Below, one piece after another: positions 3,615-39,357 of a stretch of DNA of 64,000 nucleotides. This DNA is from a bacterium (GTDB lineage: Bacteria > Patescibacteriota > Minisyncoccia > UBA6257 > Colwellbacteraceae). The stretch is taken from assembly GCA_029548485.1 (NCBI GenBank), contig JAKPNH010000002.1, positions 7,747-71,746 on the forward strand, read 5' to 3'. Every line of letters starts with the position of its first letter. Within the stretch, counting starts at the first letter, position 1. The position numbers and the translations under genes were made by a program. Below the pieces are notes generated by a model. It did no database searches. It was not told the DNA's origin and was given only the letters and a program-made list of their open reading frames with translations.

Positions 3615-4251
3615 GGGCCAATCGCTTATCGAGGCGCTGGTGGCCCTGATGGTCGGCGTTATCATGATCGGCGGCGTATCCACCGTCCTCATCCTGTCGG
3701 TGCGTTCGAGCGCGGACGCGGATCAGTTCAACAGCGCCAGCCGTTTGGCGAGCCAAGAGCTCGACAATATCAGGGTTTTCGCCGAAGCCGATTGGAACGC
3801 CATTTATCTCGCCACCAAATACGTCGATCCGGGAAATACCAACCCGCATTATCTTTCCGTGGTGAACGTCGGCGGCAAAACGAGCTTCGTCATCAACAAC
3901 GGAACGACGGCGGTGACCGTCGACAGCATCGAATACACCAAATCCTTCTATATAGAAAACGTGGAGCGCGACGAAGACGACAACATCGTCGCGAGCGGGG
4001 GAACGGACGACCCCTCGACGCAAAAAATCACCGTCAACGTCACTTGGCTCGACGACAAATCCTTGAGCGTGGTCGGTTATCTTGTCCGGTCGCGGAACGT
4101 TTCGGCTCTGTTTTCGAGCTGGGGAGCCGGTCCGGGATTCGAGGGGCCGTATACCATCCTTTCCGACGCTCCCCAAGGATTTTCTTCCTCTTCCGAAGAC
4201 ATCGATTTCGCTCCCGAGGTCGGAGGAATCACGCTTATCATCGAACAATGA
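3589..4251 (+). CDS. Prepilin-type pseudopilin / minor pilin
   Basis: 10-aa leader 'MRTARSHIRG', then 'QSLIEALVALMVGVIMIGG' (G|QSLIE motif). Overlaps the previous gene by 26 nt. Confidence 0.7.
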   Translation: MRTARSHIRGQSLIEALVALMVGVIMIGGVSTVLILSVRSSADADQFNSASRLASQELDNIRVFAEADWNAIYLATKYVDPGNTNPHYLSVVNVGGKTSFVINNGTTAVTVDSIEYTKSFYIENVERDEDDNIVASGGTDDPSTQKITVNVTWLDDKSLSVVGYLVRSRNVSALFSSWGAGPGFEGPYTILSDAPQGFSSSSEDIDFAPEVGGITLIIEQ

Positions 4252-27952: not shown

Positions 27953-29185
27953 ATGAAAATCTCTGAAGAAAAAAGAGGAGACGAAGGATCGATGGTTAGC
28001 GTCAATTTGGGAGCCTTTTGCAACCAGAATTGCGTTTTTTGCCTGGCCGCCGACGGCAAAGAGGTTTATCCGAGATTATCCCGCGACGAAGCCGTCAAAG
28101 TTATCGAAAGCTATCTTGACCAGAAAGGCAAAAATTTGCTTCTCACGGGCGGAGAGTCGACCATCCATCCGGATTTCGTGGAAATCATCGGAAAAGTGCT
28201 TAAAGACGACCGCGTTCGTTCTTTGAATATCATGACGAACGGAGTCAGGTTGGGAGATAAAAGCTTTTTCGACGCCGTGATCGCGGCCGACTCCAAGAAA
28301 AAGATTTCTTTTTCTTTCTCTCTTCACGGCCACAATCCGAAGTTGTCGGAAAGCATCACTCGAGGGCAAAAGGGAGATTTCAAGAAAACTTGCACCGCCA
28401 TGCATTACGCCATCCAAGGCGGCTATAATGCGGACGTGGCCATCATCATGGTCGAACAGAATTATCGTTATCTTCCCGATTTCGCGAGGTTTATCGTCAA
28501 TGAGTTTCCGGGAATCGGAGGAGTTTCTTTCGGCTATCCGCTCCTCTTCGGAAACGCGGAAATCAACAAAGATTTCATTTACGCCAAATTCAGCGACATC
28601 GCGCCTTATCTTAAAGAAGCCTTGAGTATCCTTCTCGCTAAAGGAATCAGGGCCGTCACCGCGGCCGGAGCGCCGGTACCGCTTTGCGCCATTCCCGGAG
28701 TGGAGGAAGTGTCGGTGAGGCCGCTTATCGAATGGCGAAGGCGGTATATCGGAACGGCCACCAGCGGCCTTTTGAATTCTTTGAAAGACGAAGACACCAT
28801 TATTCCAAAAATCAAACCCGAGCAGTGCGCCGAATGCGTTTTAAACGACGCCTGCGTCGGGGTGCTCAAGTGCTATGCCGATATCTTCGGATCGGACGGC
28901 GTCATACCCGTGACGATCGGTAGTTTCCAGGGGCCGATCGTGAAGGGCGACAGCTTGTCCGAATGCCTGCCGAAGCTGGACAAAACCAAGCTGAATCTTA
29001 TTGTTTTGAGCGGAGGGGGCGATAACACCGGCCTTTATGGGTTTCCCGATGGAAGAATAGGAGTGGTTGTGAGAGAAAATAAAGATCAATCCAAACCGAA
29101 GTCGAAAGACCGTCAAAAATCCGTCAAACCGACGAAACCAAAGTCGGTAAAAAAGATCAAAAATAATCGGAAGAAATCCAGCTGA
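27953..29185 (+). CDS. Radical SAM protein with partial SPASM/twitch Cys cluster and Lys-rich C-terminal tail
   Basis: 'CNQNCVFC' CxxxCxxC. Downstream 'CAECVLNDACVGVLKC'. Tail KPKSKDRQKSVKPTKPKSVKKIKNNRKKSS. Confidence 0.75.
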   Translation: MKISEEKRGDEGSMVSVNLGAFCNQNCVFCLAADGKEVYPRLSRDEAVKVIESYLDQKGKNLLLTGGESTIHPDFVEIIGKVLKDDRVRSLNIMTNGVRLGDKSFFDAVIAADSKKKISFSFSLHGHNPKLSESITRGQKGDFKKTCTAMHYAIQGGYNADVAIIMVEQNYRYLPDFARFIVNEFPGIGGVSFGYPLLFGNAEINKDFIYAKFSDIAPYLKEALSILLAKGIRAVTAAGAPVPLCAIPGVEEVSVRPLIEWRRRYIGTATSGLLNSLKDEDTIIPKIKPEQCAECVLNDACVGVLKCYADIFGSDGVIPVTIGSFQGPIVKGDSLSECLPKLDKTKLNLIVLSGGGDNTGLYGFPDGRIGVVVRENKDQSKPKSKDRQKSVKPTKPKSVKKIKNNRKKSS

Positions 29186-32428: not shown

Positions 32429-32689
32429 TTGAAGGAAAGTTTTCGATCAAAAGTTTTTGAAATCGTCAAAGCCATCCCGCAAGGAGAAACTTTAAGCTAC
32501 AAGCGGGTGGCGGAACTCGCCGGCAGGCCGAAAGCTTTTCGGGCGGTCGGTAATATCCTGCATCGTAATTATGACCCTTCGATCCCTTGCCACCGGGTGA
32601 TAAGAAGCGACGGGACTCCCGGAGGATACAACCGGGGATCTGCGGCCAAAATAAGAAAACTGCGCGAAGAGAAAGACGATCAATTTTGA
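32429..32689 (+). CDS. MGMT-family protein (methylated-DNA-protein-cysteine methyltransferase DNA-binding/active-site domain)
   Basis: 'GETLSYKRVAELAGRPKAFRAVGNIL...PCHRVIRSDG' with the PCHRV active-site Cys. Confidence 0.6.
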   Translation: MKESFRSKVFEIVKAIPQGETLSYKRVAELAGRPKAFRAVGNILHRNYDPSIPCHRVIRSDGTPGGYNRGSAAKIRKLREEKDDQF

Positions 32690-33231
32690 TTGCTGAATTC
32701 GCAGCCGCAGTATTTTTGGCGGTAGAATCCGGCTTCGCGGCTGATTTCCGATGCCTTTTTCCAAGAATCTTTTTTGTCCGGACAGATTTCGGCAAAAGCG
32801 ATGAATTCCGTCTCGGTTTCTTCGGCGATCGTTTTGCCCAGTTGATCGATGTAATGTTCGTTTTTATGAAGGCTGGCGCTCAAGGTGGTGGTAAAAAATC
32901 GGATATTCAGGCGTTTGGCCTCGGCCGCGGTTCTCCCGAGCCGTAAGGCGAAGCAAACCGGACATCTTTTGCCTCCTTCGGGCTCTTTTTCTAGTCCGGA
33001 GACGGCCTCGTACCAGGCCGCTGGATCGTATCGGTCTTCGATAAACTCCGCTTCATTCTCCAAAGCGAGCTTTTTGGCCGCTTCAAGGCGTTTCCGATAT
33101 TCCTCTTCCGGATGGATGTTGGAATTGGAATAAAAGACGATCGGCTCGAATCGTTCGCGGAGGATCTTGAGCATCAAAGCTCCGCAAACGGCGCAGCAAA
33201 CATGGAGCAGGATTTTTGGTTTGGGGACCAT
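32680..33231 (-). CDS. queH: Epoxyqueuosine reductase QueH (DUF208)
   Basis: Internal start MVPKPKILLHVCCAVCG.... Cys motifs LLHVCC, CPVC and CGC. Confidence 0.8.
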   Translation of the reverse strand: MVPKPKILLHVCCAVCGALMLKILRERFEPIVFYSNSNIHPEEEYRKRLEAAKKLALENEAEFIEDRYDPAAWYEAVSGLEKEPEGGKRCPVCFALRLGRTAAEAKRLNIRFFTTTLSASLHKNEHYIDQLGKTIAEETETEFIAFAEICPDKKDSWKKASEISREAGFYRQKYCGCEFSNQN

Positions 33232-33283
33232 GTTATTAACGCTTACTCTATTCTTTATGATAAGATTAAGCAATTATCCATCG

Positions 33284-34075
33284 ATGGATTTTCGGCAAAC
33301 GCGATTTTTAAGTGTAGTTTCTGTTTTTATGATGGCGGCGACCGCCTTTTTTTTGGTTTCGGAGAACAACCGACAGGCTTCGAAAATCAAATTCAATCTT
33401 TCCGGATTCAAGGAAACGATTCCGCCGGAAATGGTTCTCTCCGAAGAAAAAACAGCGGTCGCCATGCCTTTGGCCGTTCCCCAATATATACAAAGATACA
33501 GGGCTTCTTGCGAAGTGGCGGCCGCTCGGGCGGCCCTGCTTTATTTCGGGGTTTCGTTTTCGGAAGACGATATGATCGAAGAGATCGGCTGGGAGATCAC
33601 CCCTCGATATTACGATAAAAACGGAGATCTGGTTTGGGGGAATCCGCAGTCGAAGTACGTGGGATATTACGATCCCGAAAGGATTTATATCGACGGCTAC
33701 GGAGTCTACAATCAGCCGATTTACGGATTTCTTTCCGAACACGGATTCGGAAAAAGCGTTTCCAAAACAAACTGGAGCATAGACGAGCTCATTTCCTACG
33801 TTCGCCAGGGCTATCCGGCGATCGCCTGGGTCTCCGGGGATTTCAAGAAAAAAGCCGTGGGCGTGATGGTTGGCCTGGACGGCGTTAAAAACCCGTGGAT
33901 TTTCTCGGAACACGCCGTGGTGGTGAGGGGATTCGACGAAAAAAGAGTTTACCTCATGGATCCGGCTCCGGGAGCGGGCTATCGCCAGGTTACCTGGAAA
34001 GAGTTCGAAGACGGATTCGGCAACTTGAACAATATGGCGATCGCGATCATTCCCGGAGAAATGGCGGAATTGTAG
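33284..34075 (+). CDS. Peptidase C39-like domain protein
   Basis: Start chosen at MDFRQTRFLSVVSVFMMAATAFFLV (TM) to avoid the divergent queH start. 'PQYIQRYRASCEVAAARAALLYFG' is the papain-like catalytic Cys region. Confidence 0.5.
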   Translation: MDFRQTRFLSVVSVFMMAATAFFLVSENNRQASKIKFNLSGFKETIPPEMVLSEEKTAVAMPLAVPQYIQRYRASCEVAAARAALLYFGVSFSEDDMIEEIGWEITPRYYDKNGDLVWGNPQSKYVGYYDPERIYIDGYGVYNQPIYGFLSEHGFGKSVSKTNWSIDELISYVRQGYPAIAWVSGDFKKKAVGVMVGLDGVKNPWIFSEHAVVVRGFDEKRVYLMDPAPGAGYRQVTWKEFEDGFGNLNNMAIAIIPGEMAEL

Positions 34076-34162
34076 TCTTTTTTATCCACAATACCTTTGT
34101 TGCAAATCCGGTTTCAGGGCGTAAACTGAAAGTCCAAAGTCCTTTGAAAATCTCGAAAGGAG

Positions 34163-34762
34163 ATGAGTTCCGTGGGTCTCGATGCTTTGTGCGAGGGCGC
34201 TGTCAATCATTATTTCTGGTGCGCCGGGTGCAAGGAGAAGCATGCGTTTGCGGCAATCCGTTTTACGGGGTCTCGCGCCGAGTTCGTTTTTAGCTTCCCC
34301 TCCGGCAGCCGTGAAGGCGATTTGTTCGCGATCGAGCCATACGATGCGAAGAAACACGAAAGCTTGCGGGTTGGTTTTACCCCTCTTCAAATCTATCCGG
34401 GAGACGCGTTGCCGGCCCGTTTGCTTCGTAACGACCTGACCGGATTGGCCGGAGGAGTTATCTATCTTTGCCCCGACTGCGTCGCCAAAGGAAGCCTGTC
34501 AAAACTGGAAGAGGAATTCATAGAACAAGCGAGATCTCTTCTTATGAAGGAGATCTGCATGTTAGTCTGGATCGGTGTTTTAACGCCCATGGGTATTCCG
34601 AAGTCTTTGAGGCTTTCCAAGAAACAAAAGCGGCTTCGGATCGAGAGCATCAAGGCGGTCATCGATAATTTCCGGGCCATCAAGCCGACAGACGCCCCTT
34701 ATGACCCTAAGTTCATACCCATTTTAGAGAAGTGTCTCAAGCTCTTGGAGCACATTTCTTGA
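34163..34762 (+). CDS. Hypothetical protein with two CxxC pairs
   Basis: WCAGCKEKH ... YLCPDCVAKG. No recognisable family. Confidence 0.35.
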   Translation: MSSVGLDALCEGAVNHYFWCAGCKEKHAFAAIRFTGSRAEFVFSFPSGSREGDLFAIEPYDAKKHESLRVGFTPLQIYPGDALPARLLRNDLTGLAGGVIYLCPDCVAKGSLSKLEEEFIEQARSLLMKEICMLVWIGVLTPMGIPKSLRLSKKQKRLRIESIKAVIDNFRAIKPTDAPYDPKFIPILEKCLKLLEHIS

Positions 34763-34842
34763 AAACGGTTATAACGAGCGGCCGAGCAATCTCGGCCGTT
34801 TTTGTTCTTGTCCCCGAGCTTGCCAGAAACTATAATGAGCTT

Positions 34843-35844
34843 ATGGCGAAAAAAGTGATTCTGACCGGAGACAGGCCGACCGGAAAGCTGCACCTGGGGC
34901 ACTATATCGGTTCTTTGACGAACCGTTTAAAACTTCAAGACGAAGCCGAAGAATACGTGATGATCGCCGATGCCCAGGCCTTGACCGATAACGCCGATAA
35001 TCCGGAAAAAGTCAGGCAGAATGTCTTGGAATTGATGCTCGATTATCTGGCGATCGGACTCGACCCGGAGAAAACCGTTTTCTTCGTCCAATCGGCTTTG
35101 CCCGAGCTTCCGGAACTCACGGTTTATTTTTTGAACCTGGTCACCTTGGCCAGGCTCCAGCGGAACCCGACGGTCAAAAACGAGATGAAGCAAAAAGGAT
35201 ACGGCGCGAACGTTCCGGCCGGTTTTCTGACTTATCCGATAAGCCAGGCGGCCGACATCTTGGCCTTCAAGGCCGATCTGGTCCCGGTCGGGGAAGACCA
35301 GCTGCCGATGATCGAACAGGCGAACGAGATCGCCGACACTTTCAACAGATTCTACGGGCCGGTATTCAAACGCGCCAAGGCTTTGGTTTCTTCGACCGGC
35401 CGGCTTCCGGGGATCGACGGCAAAGCGAAAATGTCGAAGTCCCTCGGGAACGCCATTTATCTTTCCGATGCGGAGAAAACCATCAAAGAACAGGTGATGA
35501 AGATGTACACCGATCCGCGGCATATCCACGTCGAAGACAAAGGGAAAGTCGAGGGCAACGTCGTTTTTACCTATCTTGACGCTTTCGATCCGGACAAGTC
35601 AGCTGTCGGGGCCCTGAAGAGACAATACCGGAAAGGCGGATTGGGAGACGTGGAGATAAAAAAGCGGCTGATCGAGGTTTTGGAAAGCCTGATAAGCCCG
35701 ATCAGGCAAAAAAGGGAGAAGCTGGCCAAAGATCCAGAGAGAGTGATGTCTATTTTGGAAAAAGGCACCAAAAAAGCCGGGGAAACGACCAGGAAGACCC
35801 TGGCCGAGGCCAAAAAGGCGATGAAAATAGACTATTTCCGATAA
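34843..35844 (+). CDS. trpS: Tryptophanyl-tRNA synthetase
   Basis: Start MAKKVILTGDRPTGKLHLGHY (HIGH-type). 'KMSKSLGN' present. Confidence 0.9.
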   Translation: MAKKVILTGDRPTGKLHLGHYIGSLTNRLKLQDEAEEYVMIADAQALTDNADNPEKVRQNVLELMLDYLAIGLDPEKTVFFVQSALPELPELTVYFLNLVTLARLQRNPTVKNEMKQKGYGANVPAGFLTYPISQAADILAFKADLVPVGEDQLPMIEQANEIADTFNRFYGPVFKRAKALVSSTGRLPGIDGKAKMSKSLGNAIYLSDAEKTIKEQVMKMYTDPRHIHVEDKGKVEGNVVFTYLDAFDPDKSAVGALKRQYRKGGLGDVEIKKRLIEVLESLISPIRQKREKLAKDPERVMSILEKGTKKAGETTRKTLAEAKKAMKIDYFR

Positions 35845-35868
35845 GCCGGCCGCCTGTTTATTCCGGCG

Positions 35869-35877
35869 TGCTATAAT
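35869..35877 (+). promoter_or_regulatory. Extended -10 gTGcTATAAT promoter for the Cys-rich micro-ORF
   Basis: TGnTATAAT at 35869-35877, about 30 nt before the ATG at 35908. Confidence 0.45.
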
Positions 35878-35907
35878 GCGGGAAAGGTCGTCAACGTCAA
35901 TTTCGAC

Positions 35908-36024
35908 ATGTGCCAGACTTGCGGATGTTCTCCCTGCAAAAAGTGCGGCAGGGAAATAAAAAACGGCGTCTGCAGCGGTTGCGGCAAGAGATCTGACGAA
36001 TGCGAATGTAAGAGGGAGGGATAA
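35908..36024 (+). CDS. 38-aa Cys-rich peptide (10 Cys)
   Basis: MCQTCGCSPCKKCGREIKNGVCSGCGKRSDECECKREG. Too short for the ORF track. Bracketed by its own promoter and terminator. Confidence 0.4.
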   Translation: MCQTCGCSPCKKCGREIKNGVCSGCGKRSDECECKREG

Positions 36025-36051
36025 GGTTGTTTTCAGATAGCTGCTTTCCAT

Positions 36052-36077
36052 CCCGCGGTTAAGCCGCGGGATTTTTG
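36052..36077 (+). terminator. Rho-independent terminator
   Basis: CCCGCGG-ttaag-CCGCGGG plus TTTTTG. Confidence 0.7.
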
Positions 36078-36098
36078 TTTCCCGAAGATTTTCGTGTT

Positions 36099-37250
36099 AT
36101 GACTTATGGCGAAATGATCGATTTTCGAGTCTTGAAAGAGTCTCCGAAAAGTCGAGCCAGGCTCGGCTTTTTGAAAACGCCGCACGGCGAAATCGAGACC
36201 CCGGCCCTGGTCGGAGTGGCCACCCAGGCGACGGTGAAAACCCTGACTTCCGAAGAAGCGAATGAGGCGAAGCTGAAGCTTCTGATTTGCAATACTTATC
36301 ATCTTCATCTCCGGCCGGGAGAGAAAATCGTTAAAGCGAATGGCGGACTTCACGAGTTCATGAACTGGAATTCCGGCCTGATGACCGATTCCGGCGGTTT
36401 CCAGGTGTTCAGCCTCGGGTTCGGACGGGATTTCGGATTGAGCAAGGTTTCGAAATCCGCTTCGAAAGAAACGCTCGAAGAGGGCAGTCAGCCGAGGAAT
36501 TTGAAAATTACCGGTGACGGCGTATTTTTCAAATCCCATCTCGACGGACGAGAAATATTCTTGGGGCCGAAAGAATCGATCAAGATCCAGGAAGACCTGG
36601 GAGCCGACATCATTCTCGCTTTCGACGAATGCCCTCCGCCCATCGCCGGCCGCGAATACGTCTTAAAGTCCCTGGAGCGCACTCATCGCTGGGCCAAGGA
36701 ATGCCTGCGCGCCAAAAAATCCCAACAAGCCCTTTACGGAATCGTTCAGGGAGGCCGGTTCAAGGATCTGCGGTCGGAATCAGCGCGATTCATCGATTCT
36801 CTGGGGTTCGACGGCTACGCCATCGGCGGAGAATTCGGAAGCGATAAGTCGTCCATGATGAAAATGCTCGAAACGGTGAACGCCGAACTCGACGCTTCGA
36901 GGCCGAGGCATCTTTTGGGAATCGGATACCTCGAAGACATTCCGAAGATCGTCAAATCCGGCGTGGATACTTTCGACTGCACCGCGCCGACGCATTACGG
37001 CCGCCGGGGCATCGCTTTCGTCTCTTCGGGAAAATTGGATCTGAATAAGGCGGCGTTTTTGAAAGACCGAAAACCACTTGACCGGACTTGCGGTTGTCCG
37101 GTCTGCGGAGCCTATTCCCGAAGCTATATCAGCCATTTGATCCGCGCCAAAGAAATTTCCGGCTTGAAGCTTCTCACTGTGCATAACCTGTTTTTCTTCA
37201 ATACTTATATCGAGAAAATAAGGCAGGATATCAAAAAAGGAAGGCTTTGA
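36099..37250 (+). CDS. tgt: Queuine/preQ1 tRNA-ribosyltransferase
   Basis: 'LMTDSGGFQVFSLG' catalytic Asp region. Zinc site 'CGCPVCGAY...H'. Confidence 0.85.
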   Translation: MTYGEMIDFRVLKESPKSRARLGFLKTPHGEIETPALVGVATQATVKTLTSEEANEAKLKLLICNTYHLHLRPGEKIVKANGGLHEFMNWNSGLMTDSGGFQVFSLGFGRDFGLSKVSKSASKETLEEGSQPRNLKITGDGVFFKSHLDGREIFLGPKESIKIQEDLGADIILAFDECPPPIAGREYVLKSLERTHRWAKECLRAKKSQQALYGIVQGGRFKDLRSESARFIDSLGFDGYAIGGEFGSDKSSMMKMLETVNAELDASRPRHLLGIGYLEDIPKIVKSGVDTFDCTAPTHYGRRGIAFVSSGKLDLNKAAFLKDRKPLDRTCGCPVCGAYSRSYISHLIRAKEISGLKLLTVHNLFFFNTYIEKIRQDIKKGRL

Positions 37251-37283
37251 TCGATACGGCCGAACGCTTATAATGAGAACGCT

Positions 37284-37844
37284 ATGGGCTTGATCATGAT
37301 TTTGGGTCCGATGAAAAGCGGCAAATCATTCGAGATGATCAGTCGCTTTATTCATCTGAAATACACAGCCCTTCCTTATGGTCTCTTCCAGTCGTCGAGA
37401 AACGTCCGCAATGAAAATGTTTGGTCCCGGAACGGTCTGTCTCTGGAGGCGATTAAAGTCGACAATCTCGATGCATCTTTAAGGAGAAATTATCGGATTG
37501 TCGGCGTTGACGAAATACATATGTTTGCGGAAGAAGAAGTAAAAACTGTCGAGGAGTTGTTGAATCGGGGCACGGACGTCATTGTTTCCGGATTGGACAG
37601 CGATTATCGCGGTCGGATGTTTCCGATTATCCGCGGGCTTTTGGAACTCGGTCCGACGGAAGTTCATTATAAAAAAGCGGTTTGCGAAATATGCAAAAGT
37701 CCGGATGCGATTTACACGCAAATTTTCAGCGGTGAACAACCGGTTGTCGAAGGACTGCCTCCGGTGGTGCCCGATGACGGGGGATATGTTTACAAATCGG
37801 TCTGCCGTAAATGTTTTGTGCGAAAACTCGATCGGATTAGATGA
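37284..37844 (+). CDS. tdk: Thymidine kinase
   Basis: 'GPMKSGKS' P-loop. C-terminal zinc ribbon CEICK...CRKC. Confidence 0.85.
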   Translation: MGLIMILGPMKSGKSFEMISRFIHLKYTALPYGLFQSSRNVRNENVWSRNGLSLEAIKVDNLDASLRRNYRIVGVDEIHMFAEEEVKTVEELLNRGTDVIVSGLDSDYRGRMFPIIRGLLELGPTEVHYKKAVCEICKSPDAIYTQIFSGEQPVVEGLPPVVPDDGGYVYKSVCRKCFVRKLDRIR

Positions 37845-38875
37845 AATTCGAAAAAATTCTGGAACTTTACGATTACCGGTTTCCCGAAAAAGCCGTGGCC
37901 CAGTGTCCGGCGAGCCCCAGGGACAGCGCCAAGCTTTTGGTTTACGACCGGAAAACTAAAAAAACCTTTTTCGATGTTTTCCGGAATCTCGGCGATCATC
38001 TCCCTTTGAAAGCGGTTCTGGTTTTCAACGAAACCAAGGTGGTTCCGGCGCGGATCTGGGCCAAGAAATCGACCGGCGGAAAGATCCAGCTGCTTTACGT
38101 GGGAGAGGAAAAAGGAAAGCTTCGATTCATGGTCGACCGCAAAATCCGTCCGGGAGAGAAAATATTTCTGGATAGCCGGAACTTTTTGACTTTTGCGGGC
38201 CAGAAAGAAGGAGTTTGGCTTTTCGAACCGTCTTTTCCGGCGCGAAACATTTTCGGCGTTCTGGAGAAATTCGGAGAAACGCCGATCCCCCCGTATATCA
38301 AGCATTCGCCTTTGAAAGAGTCCGAGCTCAAGGAAAAGTACCAGGCGGTTTTCGCGAAAATCCGGGGTTCGGTGGCCGCCCCCACTGCTTCGCTCCATTT
38401 TACGAAGAGATTGATGTCGAAACTAGAAAAATCCGGCTTTGACCTGAAATTCATCGTTCTCCACGTCAACCTTGGAACTTTCGCCAAGCTGACGCCGAAG
38501 CAAATAGAACACTCGAAACTCCACGAAGAGTTTTACGAGATAGATCCGGAAACGGCGGAATTCCTGAATAAAGCCAAAAAAGAAGGCCGGCCGATCGTCA
38601 GCGTCGGTACGACCGTCGCCCGTACGCTCGAATCGGCGAGCGACGCCAAGGGAAGCCTCGTCAAGTTGTCCGGGAAAACGAGTCTTTTCATCAAAGAAGG
38701 ATATCGGTTCAGATTCGTCGACGGCCTCGTCACCAATTTCCACGTGCCGCAATCGAGCCTTTTGATGCTCGTTTCCGCTTTCGCCGGAAGAAAACGGATC
38801 CTCGATTTGTACCGGAAAGCGATCGCCAAAGGATTCAAGATATTCTCTTTCGGAGACGGAATGCTTTTGAAATAA
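37841..38875 (+). CDS. queA: S-adenosylmethionine:tRNA ribosyltransferase-isomerase
   Basis: 'LELYDYRFPEKAVAQCPASPRDSAKLLV' N-terminal QueA signature. Confidence 0.9.
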   Translation: MKFEKILELYDYRFPEKAVAQCPASPRDSAKLLVYDRKTKKTFFDVFRNLGDHLPLKAVLVFNETKVVPARIWAKKSTGGKIQLLYVGEEKGKLRFMVDRKIRPGEKIFLDSRNFLTFAGQKEGVWLFEPSFPARNIFGVLEKFGETPIPPYIKHSPLKESELKEKYQAVFAKIRGSVAAPTASLHFTKRLMSKLEKSGFDLKFIVLHVNLGTFAKLTPKQIEHSKLHEEFYEIDPETAEFLNKAKKEGRPIVSVGTTVARTLESASDAKGSLVKLSGKTSLFIKEGYRFRFVDGLVTNFHVPQSSLLMLVSAFAGRKRILDLYRKAIAKGFKIFSFGDGMLLK

Positions 38876-38917
38876 CTTGATTCCAGCCGGTTTTGATGAT
38901 AATGATTCGTTTAGTTC

Positions 38918-39271
38918 TTGATAAAGGAGGCGAAATCCTTGAAGTTGTTCTTCCTTTTGATGTTATTGACGGGAACGATCGCCGGCCTCGCGGAAAAATG
39001 CGCGGAGCTCAAAAACAGGGAGCCCTTGAGAACGATCGCTCCCGTGATCGTCGTTTTTCCGCTCGTGATAGCGATAGTGAAAATGTTTCCGGAGGCGACA
39101 ACCGATATGGCCGCACCCGACACTTGGCCGGGTTGGATCGCTTCTCTCGCAGTCAGCCTCGCGGGCAATTTCTGGGCGAGCCGCGTTTGCCCCGAATGGC
39201 ATTTCGATCCGATCGGTTGGGCGAGAGAGCTCGCGAAACGCGTCAAATCGAAAATATCCCGCAAGCGTTGA
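38918..39271 (+). CDS. Hypothetical membrane or secreted protein
   Basis: Only protein-like frame between queA and rsmE. The overlapping track ORF 38893.. is Arg-rich junk upstream of the rsmE start. Confidence 0.3.
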   Translation: MIKEAKSLKLFFLLMLLTGTIAGLAEKCAELKNREPLRTIAPVIVVFPLVIAIVKMFPEATTDMAAPDTWPGWIASLAVSLAGNFWASRVCPEWHFDPIGWARELAKRVKSKISRKR

Positions 39272-39357
39272 TACGGACGGAGCCAAAAACTCCGTCTTTT
39301 TTACGACGATTGCCGGTTCAAATAAGACGCGTTAAGCTTAAAATAATTCAAACTTAT

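Follow-up and report, generated by a model that had tools for sequence, protein, structure and literature searches.

Between the genes for TrpS and Tgt in a 64,000-nucleotide stretch of patescibacterial DNA (contig JAKPNH010000002.1; the whole stretch is referred to here as the window) lies a very short, Cys-rich open reading frame (ORF), which raises the questions of whether so small an ORF is a gene at all and, if it is, what its product might do in the cell. On comparative evidence it is a genuine protein-coding gene that is translated and held under strong purifying selection, and its product belongs to a widespread family that has so far gone without annotation and that appears to be one of the many kinds of Cys-rich, metal-binding microprotein. 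As to function, we favour, at a probability of about 0.45, an independently transcribed gene for a cytoplasmic, redox-sensitive metal-thiolate microprotein that would form part of the stress and oxygen-defence repertoire.

The ORF begins with the ATG at position 35908 of the forward strand and ends, stop codon included, at 36024; the ORF call and its translation give 38 codons. The predicted product, MCQTCGCSPCKKCGREIKNGVCSGCGKRSDECECKREG, carries Cys at positions 2, 5, 7, 10, 13, 22, 25, 32 and 34, that is nine of its 38 residues (24%), where a preliminary description of the locus had counted ten, and it contains no Phe, Trp, Tyr or His. An example of an expected tryptic peptide is EIKNGVCSGCGK. 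Among the 606 ORFs of the window it is the only small one that is rich in Cys. An ORF of at most 60 residues with nine Cys was nonetheless reached in one of 30 block shuffles of the window, and the Cys count by itself is only modestly unusual against chance. With so modest an excess over chance, the argument for a gene rests on conservation.

That conservation is extensive. The ORF is intact in 84 of 84 loci from genomes and metagenome-assembled genomes (MAGs) and in 80 of 80 loci from metagenomes; in every case it encodes 34 to 44 residues, starts with Met-Cys and retains the same nine Cys. The mean pairwise proportion of differences at synonymous sites (pS) is 0.83, which corresponds to saturation, against 0.18 at non-synonymous sites (pN), and the column entropies at the first, second and third codon positions are 0.53, 0.44 and 1.34. 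Twelve columns of the family alignment are invariant (M1, C2, C5, G6, C7, C10, C13, G14, C22, C25, C32 and C34) and P9 is almost so. Between phyla the identity is 70–86% over about 35 residues, with host loci that range from 33 to 67% GC, and the ORF is among the most strongly constrained sequences of its neighbourhood. The window genome is that of a member of the Patescibacteria close to the MAG UR.bin13. Its microprotein ORF differs from that of the closest relative in our set (locus L005), in which the neighbouring proteins are 87–92% identical, at two nucleotides, both synonymous, leaving the peptide identical; the comparison with a second relative (L006) gave nine nucleotide differences, of which about one is non-synonymous within the first 34 codons. 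In-frame conservation with synonymous variation among relatives, which the preliminary description had named as a check on the ORF, is therefore what these two loci display. An RNA element at this position was ruled out by the codon-position pattern together with a Rfam scan of 35700–36200, which returned chance-level matches; the match to Trp_leader, which at 20 bits falls short of the gathering score of 41, corresponds to nothing more than the terminator of the gene. A GTCG...CGAC pairing in the 5' untranslated region (UTR) of the window copy is not kept in L006.

The ORF is flanked by signals of its own within the interval between the trpS stop codon (35842–35844) and the start of tgt (approximately 36099). 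Upstream, on the same strand, the sequence reads as an extended -10 element, gTGcTATAAT, at 35868–35877 (TATAAT at 35872–35877), with no recognisable -35 hexamer; since that hexamer is lacking, the element is absent from the list of a two-hexamer promoter scan. It would act as the promoter of the gene, and with a start placed about 7 nt past the -10 the predicted 5' UTR is about 24 nt long (35884–35907) and has no Shine-Dalgarno sequence. Downstream, a predicted intrinsic terminator occupies 36050–36081, again on the forward strand: the stem ATCCCGCGG(T)/(G)CCGCGGGAT forms a hairpin of 10 pairs at 36050–36072 (-18.3 kcal/mol) and is followed by TTTTTGTTT, as found by a terminator scan and RNAfold. 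The preliminary description had proposed a self-contained micro-gene, and the ORF, the TGcTATAAT element and the terminator were all found where it had placed them; the ORF is conserved as coding sequence, and the two signals are located by their sequence. When the window is aligned with L005 and L006, the block GGCGTGCTATAATGCGGGAAAGGTCGT, which contains the -10 element, is identical in all three; conservation runs from this block through the stop codon, and the sequences diverge on either side. The leader of the window copy is nearly identical in L005 and L006. The terminator of L005 has the same hairpin as the window, and that of L006 is a hairpin of other sequence (-17.3 kcal/mol) with a T-run at the same relative place. 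This pattern suggests that promoter, leader and ORF behave as a self-contained cassette. L006 also has about 230 nt of extra sequence between trpS and the microprotein promoter, holding a 55-codon ORF (positions 3738–3905 of that locus) that follows a TATAAT of its own.

Expression signals in other lineages point to high abundance of the microprotein. In 70 of 82 loci outside the Patescibacteria a strong Shine-Dalgarno sequence, typically AAGGAGGTG, lies 5–9 nt before the ATG; a near-consensus TTGACA/TAnAAT promoter is found within 130 nt in 29 of 81 loci, and a simple scan places a terminator-like hairpin just downstream in 35 of 85. The missing Shine-Dalgarno sequence at the window copy appears to be a habit of this genome and is no argument against translation, because only one of the 58 window ORFs of at least 200 residues has a strong one. 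Several window genes have TATAAT 6–8 nt before the ATG, for example trpS (TATAAT at 34831–34836, ATG at 34843) and those with ATGs at 27953 and 48551, which suggests that leaderless or very-short-leader mRNAs are widespread in this genome. Inspection of the upstream regions, by eye only, found no Fur, PerR or Zur-like box common to the loci of different phyla. By the established specificity of methionine aminopeptidase, the initiator Met is removed when residue 2 is Cys, and the mature microprotein would therefore be expected to carry an N-terminal Cys.

Relatives of the microprotein were collected in several ways. A word-indexed search with an extension of 40 residues gave four relatives of 41 residues at about 80% identity, 27 clusters came from searching 1.84 billion cluster representatives exhaustively with HMMER, and a profile search gave 158 clusters at 90% identity, all of them unnamed or "hypothetical" and none with a Pfam domain. 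A scan with a back-translated pattern placed relatives in at least 263 of 185,579 species-level genomes and in at least 570 metagenome stretches. The carriers belong to the Patescibacteria, Omnitrophota, Planctomycetota, Nitrospirota, Desulfobacterota and other phyla, and are mostly uncultivated and mostly from anaerobic lineages. The Brocadiaceae/Jettenia are represented among them by L049 and L051. Neither Pfam (at E ≤ 10) nor NCBIfam matched the window peptide, and the PDB holds no significant match to the family. The exact peptide of the window, which has never been called as a gene, is missing from a collection of 15 billion proteins, although L005 encodes an identical one. A full-text literature search with the exact sequence returned no paper, and keyword searches returned no description of the family. 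The gene was not found in the phage, plasmid and IMG/VR collections, and a mobile-element origin was rejected on these grounds. Two subfamilies can be distinguished. In one, to which the window copy belongs, the core is basic and the tail short or rich in Lys; the other has an acidic core and a poly-Asp/Glu tail. In the latter (P0022, P0088, P0102, P0109 and others; loci L085–L090) the tails are 30–55 residues long with a conserved ending, KDW or NDW, and the genes likewise stand alone, in Planctomycete-like contexts.

The core of the microprotein has the form C2-x2-C5-G-C7-x-P-C10-x2-C13-G-x2-I-x-N-G-V-C22-x-G-C25-G-x6-C32-x-C34, which in the window peptide comprises three CxxCG knuckles (CQTCG, CKKCG and CSGCG) and one CxC. 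The central segment, C10xxC13G-x7-C22xxC25G, is invariant, and its spacing matches that of a short C4 zinc ribbon exactly. The AlphaFold2 model built with the family alignment (predicted local distance difference test score, pLDDT, of 84) consists of an N-terminal turn, a hairpin at residues 17–22 with strands at 17–18 and 21–22, and a short C-terminal turn, and alignment and model thus agree on two CxxC knuckles around a short β-hairpin. No gathering threshold of a zinc-ribbon profile was reached: the window peptide has no Pfam match, and two of 26 family members come to E 0.004 with Zn_Ribbon_1. The only profile similarities to PDB entries link residues 8–31 to C4 zinc ribbons with matching spacing (eL37, chain 9qtr_i, RecR and a miniaturised rubredoxin), and all are non-significant (E 0.05–0.3; best 0.05–0.07). 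Foldseek gave nothing significant (E > 1; rubredoxins at E ≥ 4.9), the top of its noise being occupied by rubredoxin, the rubrerythrin C-terminal domain, the adenylate-kinase lid and NZF knuckles. By its motif the peptide falls among the C(P)XCG zinc-finger microproteins, a class that is operational and not a homologous family. The preliminary description had called the peptide zinc-ribbon-like or metallothionein-like; the three knuckles, the CxC and the Cys content bear out this likeness, which stays one of resemblance, as no family model matches. Among rare variant members, P0009 and P0026 have C10-x2-C13 shortened to CxC, and in P0011 both C2 and C10 are Tyr, which may hint at a common metal or be a sequencing artefact.

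Taken together, the motif and the model suggest that the nine Cys fold the chain around metal ions, and we consider it quite probable that they bind metal in this way, the fold being compact and nested around a central site of the zinc-ribbon or rubredoxin type. C10-x2-C13-G and C22-x2-C25-G would form a canonical short C4 knuckle pair of this kind around the IxNGV hairpin, and C2-x2-C5-G-C7 together with C32-x-C34 would close a second, outer site. The division of the Cys between inner and outer sites is provisional, and a single bridged M3Cys9 cluster would suit nine ligands equally well. Zn(II) would be the default metal; Fe is possible.

What such a protein might do is suggested by its neighbours in other phyla, for which we compared loci that reach as far as about 4 kb to either side of the micro-gene. 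The order seen in the window, trpS, micro-gene, tgt and queA, recurs in two closely related patescibacterial loci, L005, where tdk is missing, and L006, where a gene for a DUF5667 protein stands between the micro-gene and tgt; tgt, queA and the C39 peptidase occur near the micro-gene in none of the other 160 loci, and a distant trpS homologue lies about 3.5 kb away on the opposite strand in L023. The preliminary description had linked the peptide to Tgt and QueA or to the C39-like peptidase, and this link falls away: since the adjacency is absent from the other 160 loci, it appears to be a lineage-specific accident of gene order. Across phyla a recurrent neighbour is a WrbA-type FMN (flavin mononucleotide) quinone reductase, which adjoins the micro-gene, upstream or downstream, in 12 of 82 genome loci, the WrbA orthologues being 60–94% identical. 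A rubredoxin gene lies 30 nt upstream in a member of the Brocadiaceae (L049), strings of micro-gene, wrbA and rubredoxin occur in L010, L018 and L024, and a desulforedoxin gene lies 34 nt upstream in a member of the Omnitrophota (L019). An Fe/Mn superoxide dismutase (SOD) is nearby in seven genome loci, and an SthA-like flavoprotein and a dienelactone hydrolase flank the micro-gene in a clade of eight loci. In the genome loci, 22 of 24 matches to WrbA, rubredoxin, desulforedoxin or SOD fall within 1 kb of the micro-gene. A general-stress gene of the CsbD/YjbJ type stands about 57 nt upstream in L013, L021, L031 and L057, apparently in one operon with it; gene callers have fused the two into single products of 111–127 residues (P0135, P0016). 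The metagenome set replicates these associations, with CsbD in 21 of its 80 loci, WrbA in 10, rubredoxin in seven, SOD in four and a Dfx-like protein in one. Thioredoxin and peroxiredoxin genes are not recurrent in the 164 loci.

From this context we tentatively place the microprotein, at somewhat less than even odds, among the proteins with which mostly anaerobic lineages meet general stress and defend themselves against oxygen and quinones, as a redox-sensitive metal-thiolate protein. It would most likely serve there as an abundant metal-thiolate buffer or switch, of thiol or zinc, or as a small redox partner, and its place between trpS and tgt in the window genome would reflect lineage-specific gene order only. 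A role as a heavy-metal store, a ribosomally synthesized and post-translationally modified peptide (RiPP) or a tRNA-modification factor is probably not what the gene provides.

A number of observations weigh against the assignment to stress and oxygen defence. The neighbourhoods vary widely, the 150 flanking ORFs representing 108 Pfam families, and the associations with stress genes come from a limited number of lineages; because the matches reduce to about eight independent arrangements, the statistics of the context are suggestive rather than strong. The associations with stress genes are not seen in the window, in whose 64 kb tblastn found no WrbA, SOD or rubredoxin. A specific macromolecular partner would account for the very high conservation of non-Cys residues no less well than a role as a buffer. 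Metal binding, too, does not follow from the motif in every case: among the CxxCG microproteins of Haloferax only nine of 14 bound zinc, roughly one such prediction in three failing (PMC11241148), and HVO_2753 fills one of its two predicted sites (PMC11241148).

The conservation of non-Cys residues bears on another possibility, that the microprotein is a structural zinc protein that, like other small zinc-ribbon proteins, binds and modulates highly conserved cellular machinery (the ribosome, RNA polymerase or a chaperone, for example), with no redox or buffering role. We regard this as unlikely, with a good deal to be said on its side: identity between phyla remains at 70–86% with Q3, P9, K11, I17, N19, G20, V21, S23 and G24 among the residues kept, many members pair a basic core with a Lys-rich tail, the expression signals are strong, the best of the weak similarities is to the zinc ribbon of ribosomal eL37, and the gene has been kept in a small patescibacterial genome. 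The large acidic-core subfamily, with poly-Asp/Glu tails of 30–55 residues, is nevertheless incompatible with simple RNA binding. Nor would a universal component be expected to show so patchy a distribution (263 of 185,579 species by the pattern used), and no ribosomal or transcription gene recurs among the neighbours.

The neighbours that favour a role in oxygen defence could also be explained if the microprotein were a miniature Fe(Cys)4 carrier resembling rubredoxin or desulforedoxin, with one or two Fe sites, that supplies electrons for the detoxification of O2 and reactive oxygen species in anaerobes. Its three CxxCG knuckles are like those of rubredoxin, its genes adjoin rubredoxin, desulforedoxin, wrbA-rubredoxin strings, a pyridine-nucleotide oxidoreductase and SOD, its carriers are mostly anaerobic, and rubredoxin and the rubrerythrin C-terminal domain are among its weak Foldseek neighbours. 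Those structural matches are not significant, however (E > 1); neither the Pfam rubredoxin profile (PF00301) nor the desulforedoxin domain gives a match at E ≤ 10, the aromatic core of rubredoxins is absent, and a single FeS4 site would leave five of the nine Cys unexplained. We consider this explanation improbable.

A bacterial metallothionein whose M3Cys9-type cluster would hold Zn, Cu or Cd for storage or detoxification is, in our view, more doubtful still. Small size, a Cys content above 15% and a lack of aromatic residues are typical of the composition of metallothioneins, and the microprotein has all three, as well as the CxC and CxxC motifs and no His; an M3Cys9 cluster, of the kind found in the β-domain of mammalian metallothionein, also calls for just nine Cys ligands. 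Similarity to metallothionein families does not rise above noise, however, with no Pfam or NCBIfam match and only weak matches to Metallothio_Euk in three of 26 members (E 0.66), and these proteins do not usually conserve spacing and non-Cys residues to anything like the degree seen here. A metal-responsive context is likewise missing from the 164 loci, in which no Zur, Fur, ferritin or Dps gene is a neighbour, a single match to SmtB lies 3.2 kb away, and no metal-efflux family is found among the 25 commonest flanking genes.

A RiPP precursor, as the preliminary description had suggested, or a Cys-rich leader peptide (attenuator) controlling tgt and queA would account for a short Cys-rich ORF with a terminator just upstream of tgt and a C39-like peptidase 2 kb upstream, but both are effectively refuted: conservation begins at Met1-Cys2 with no division into leader and core (the Met-Cys start is present in 164 of 164 loci and annotated in 97 of 124 database proteins), no cluster of radical-SAM or other maturase, protease or transporter genes recurs in three or more loci, apart from the window only L005 and L006 have C39, tgt and queA as neighbours, many loci have a convergent or unrelated gene downstream, and it is the amino-acid sequence itself, beyond its content of Cys codons, that is conserved across 33–67% GC. 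A Cys-sensing leader peptide was rejected for the same variability of downstream genes, often convergent, and the same conservation of the amino-acid sequence.

In the window itself the genes around the micro-gene were assigned by Pfam as QueH (32680–33273, reverse strand), Peptidase_C39_2 (33167–34075), TrpS, Tgt, thymidine kinase, QueA and RsmE, with one unassigned ORF of 199 residues. The queuosine salvage genes queH (reverse strand), tgt and queA are thus clustered within 32680–38875, interleaved with Peptidase_C39_2, the 199-residue ORF, trpS, the micro-gene and tdk. The 199-residue ORF (34163–34762, forward strand) has no Pfam match and contains two CxxC pairs (WCAGC and LCPDC); it is about 64% identical to its counterpart in L005, against 87–92% for the neighbouring proteins, and so is fast-evolving. 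Between it and trpS, a terminator-like hairpin at 34776–34801 followed by a near-consensus promoter at 34808–34836 makes a compact boundary between transcription units. Beyond queA, on the forward strand, 38893–39345 opens an ORF listed from a TTG at 38893; only its residues from about 152 onwards match RsmE (Methyltrans_RNA), and identity to L005 is 50% over roughly the first 150 codons and 91% over the remainder. The TTG is probably a wrong start or belongs to a separate, poorly conserved ORF.

The existence of such a family is not surprising in itself. Annotation routinely discards microproteins of fewer than 50 residues. The family is well established as real, it is widespread, spanning hundreds of uncultivated lineages, and it is experimentally tractable: chemical synthesis, metal titration and nuclear magnetic resonance are all within reach for a 34-residue core with nine invariant Cys. 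Its function is suggested indirectly, and the recurrent pairing with WrbA, rubredoxin, SOD and CsbD yields a testable hypothesis of stress and oxygen tolerance for anaerobes and for bacteria of the Candidate Phyla Radiation (CPR); to our knowledge, little has been established about the stress physiology of CPR bacteria. In its boldest form, which we think unlikely, the hypothesis would make the microprotein a tiny natural multi-metal thiolate protein, with two nested Cys4/Cys5 sites or a single M3Cys9 cluster in 34 residues, and a dedicated component of general-stress and oxygen defence, perhaps as a partner to WrbA or rubredoxin in electron or thiol transfer, or as a zinc-thiolate switch that responds to oxidants. 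If so, a multi-metal thiolate protein conserved from the ultra-small Patescibacteria to the Desulfobacterota, Nitrospirota and Planctomycetota would have been systematically missed by gene callers. Should the microprotein prove to be a plain structural zinc knuckle, the family would still deserve a model for annotation.

Among known systems, the closest are the C(P)XCG microproteins of Haloferax volcanii, such as HVO_0758 and HVO_2753, most of which have unknown or pleiotropic functions (PMC11241148, PMC10716476). Like the microprotein described here, they stand alone, have fewer than 70 residues and carry CxxCG knuckles, HVO_2753 having four motifs and hence two predicted sites; unlike it, they are archaeal and show no detectable homology to a family that extends across many bacterial phyla and places nine invariant Cys (six in three CxxCG knuckles, two in a CxC and one besides) in 34 core residues. 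The C4 zinc ribbons of Zn_Ribbon_1, eL37 and RecR share the CxxCG-x7-CxxCG arrangement of residues 10–25 and the predicted β-hairpin, but the scores lie under every threshold (E 0.004–0.07) and the five further invariant Cys that flank this segment have no counterpart in them. Rubredoxin and desulforedoxin resemble the microprotein in their CxxCG knuckles, in very small size (desulforedoxin has 36 residues) and in the adjacency of the genes at several loci, and differ from it in having four Cys rather than nine and an aromatic core, with no match in Pfam or the PDB to connect them. With metallothioneins (SmtA/BmtA and the β-domain of animal metallothionein) it shares Cys content, the lack of aromatic residues and the nine ligands of M3Cys9; homology is absent, and its strictly conserved spacing and non-Cys residues and its lack of a metal-regulatory genomic context set it apart. 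The Cys-rich domain of DnaJ is a nested hairpin with two zinc ions, one held by the outer motifs and one by the inner. A nested topology of this kind is proposed, and only proposed, for the microprotein, whereas in DnaJ the CxxCxGxG motif is repeated four times and the domain is part of a larger chaperone; no similarity of sequence between the two was detected. Judged by criteria of motif and composition only, the microprotein would come nearest in its working to the small zinc-ribbon or C(P)XCG microproteins, with a likeness to metallothioneins that lies in its composition.

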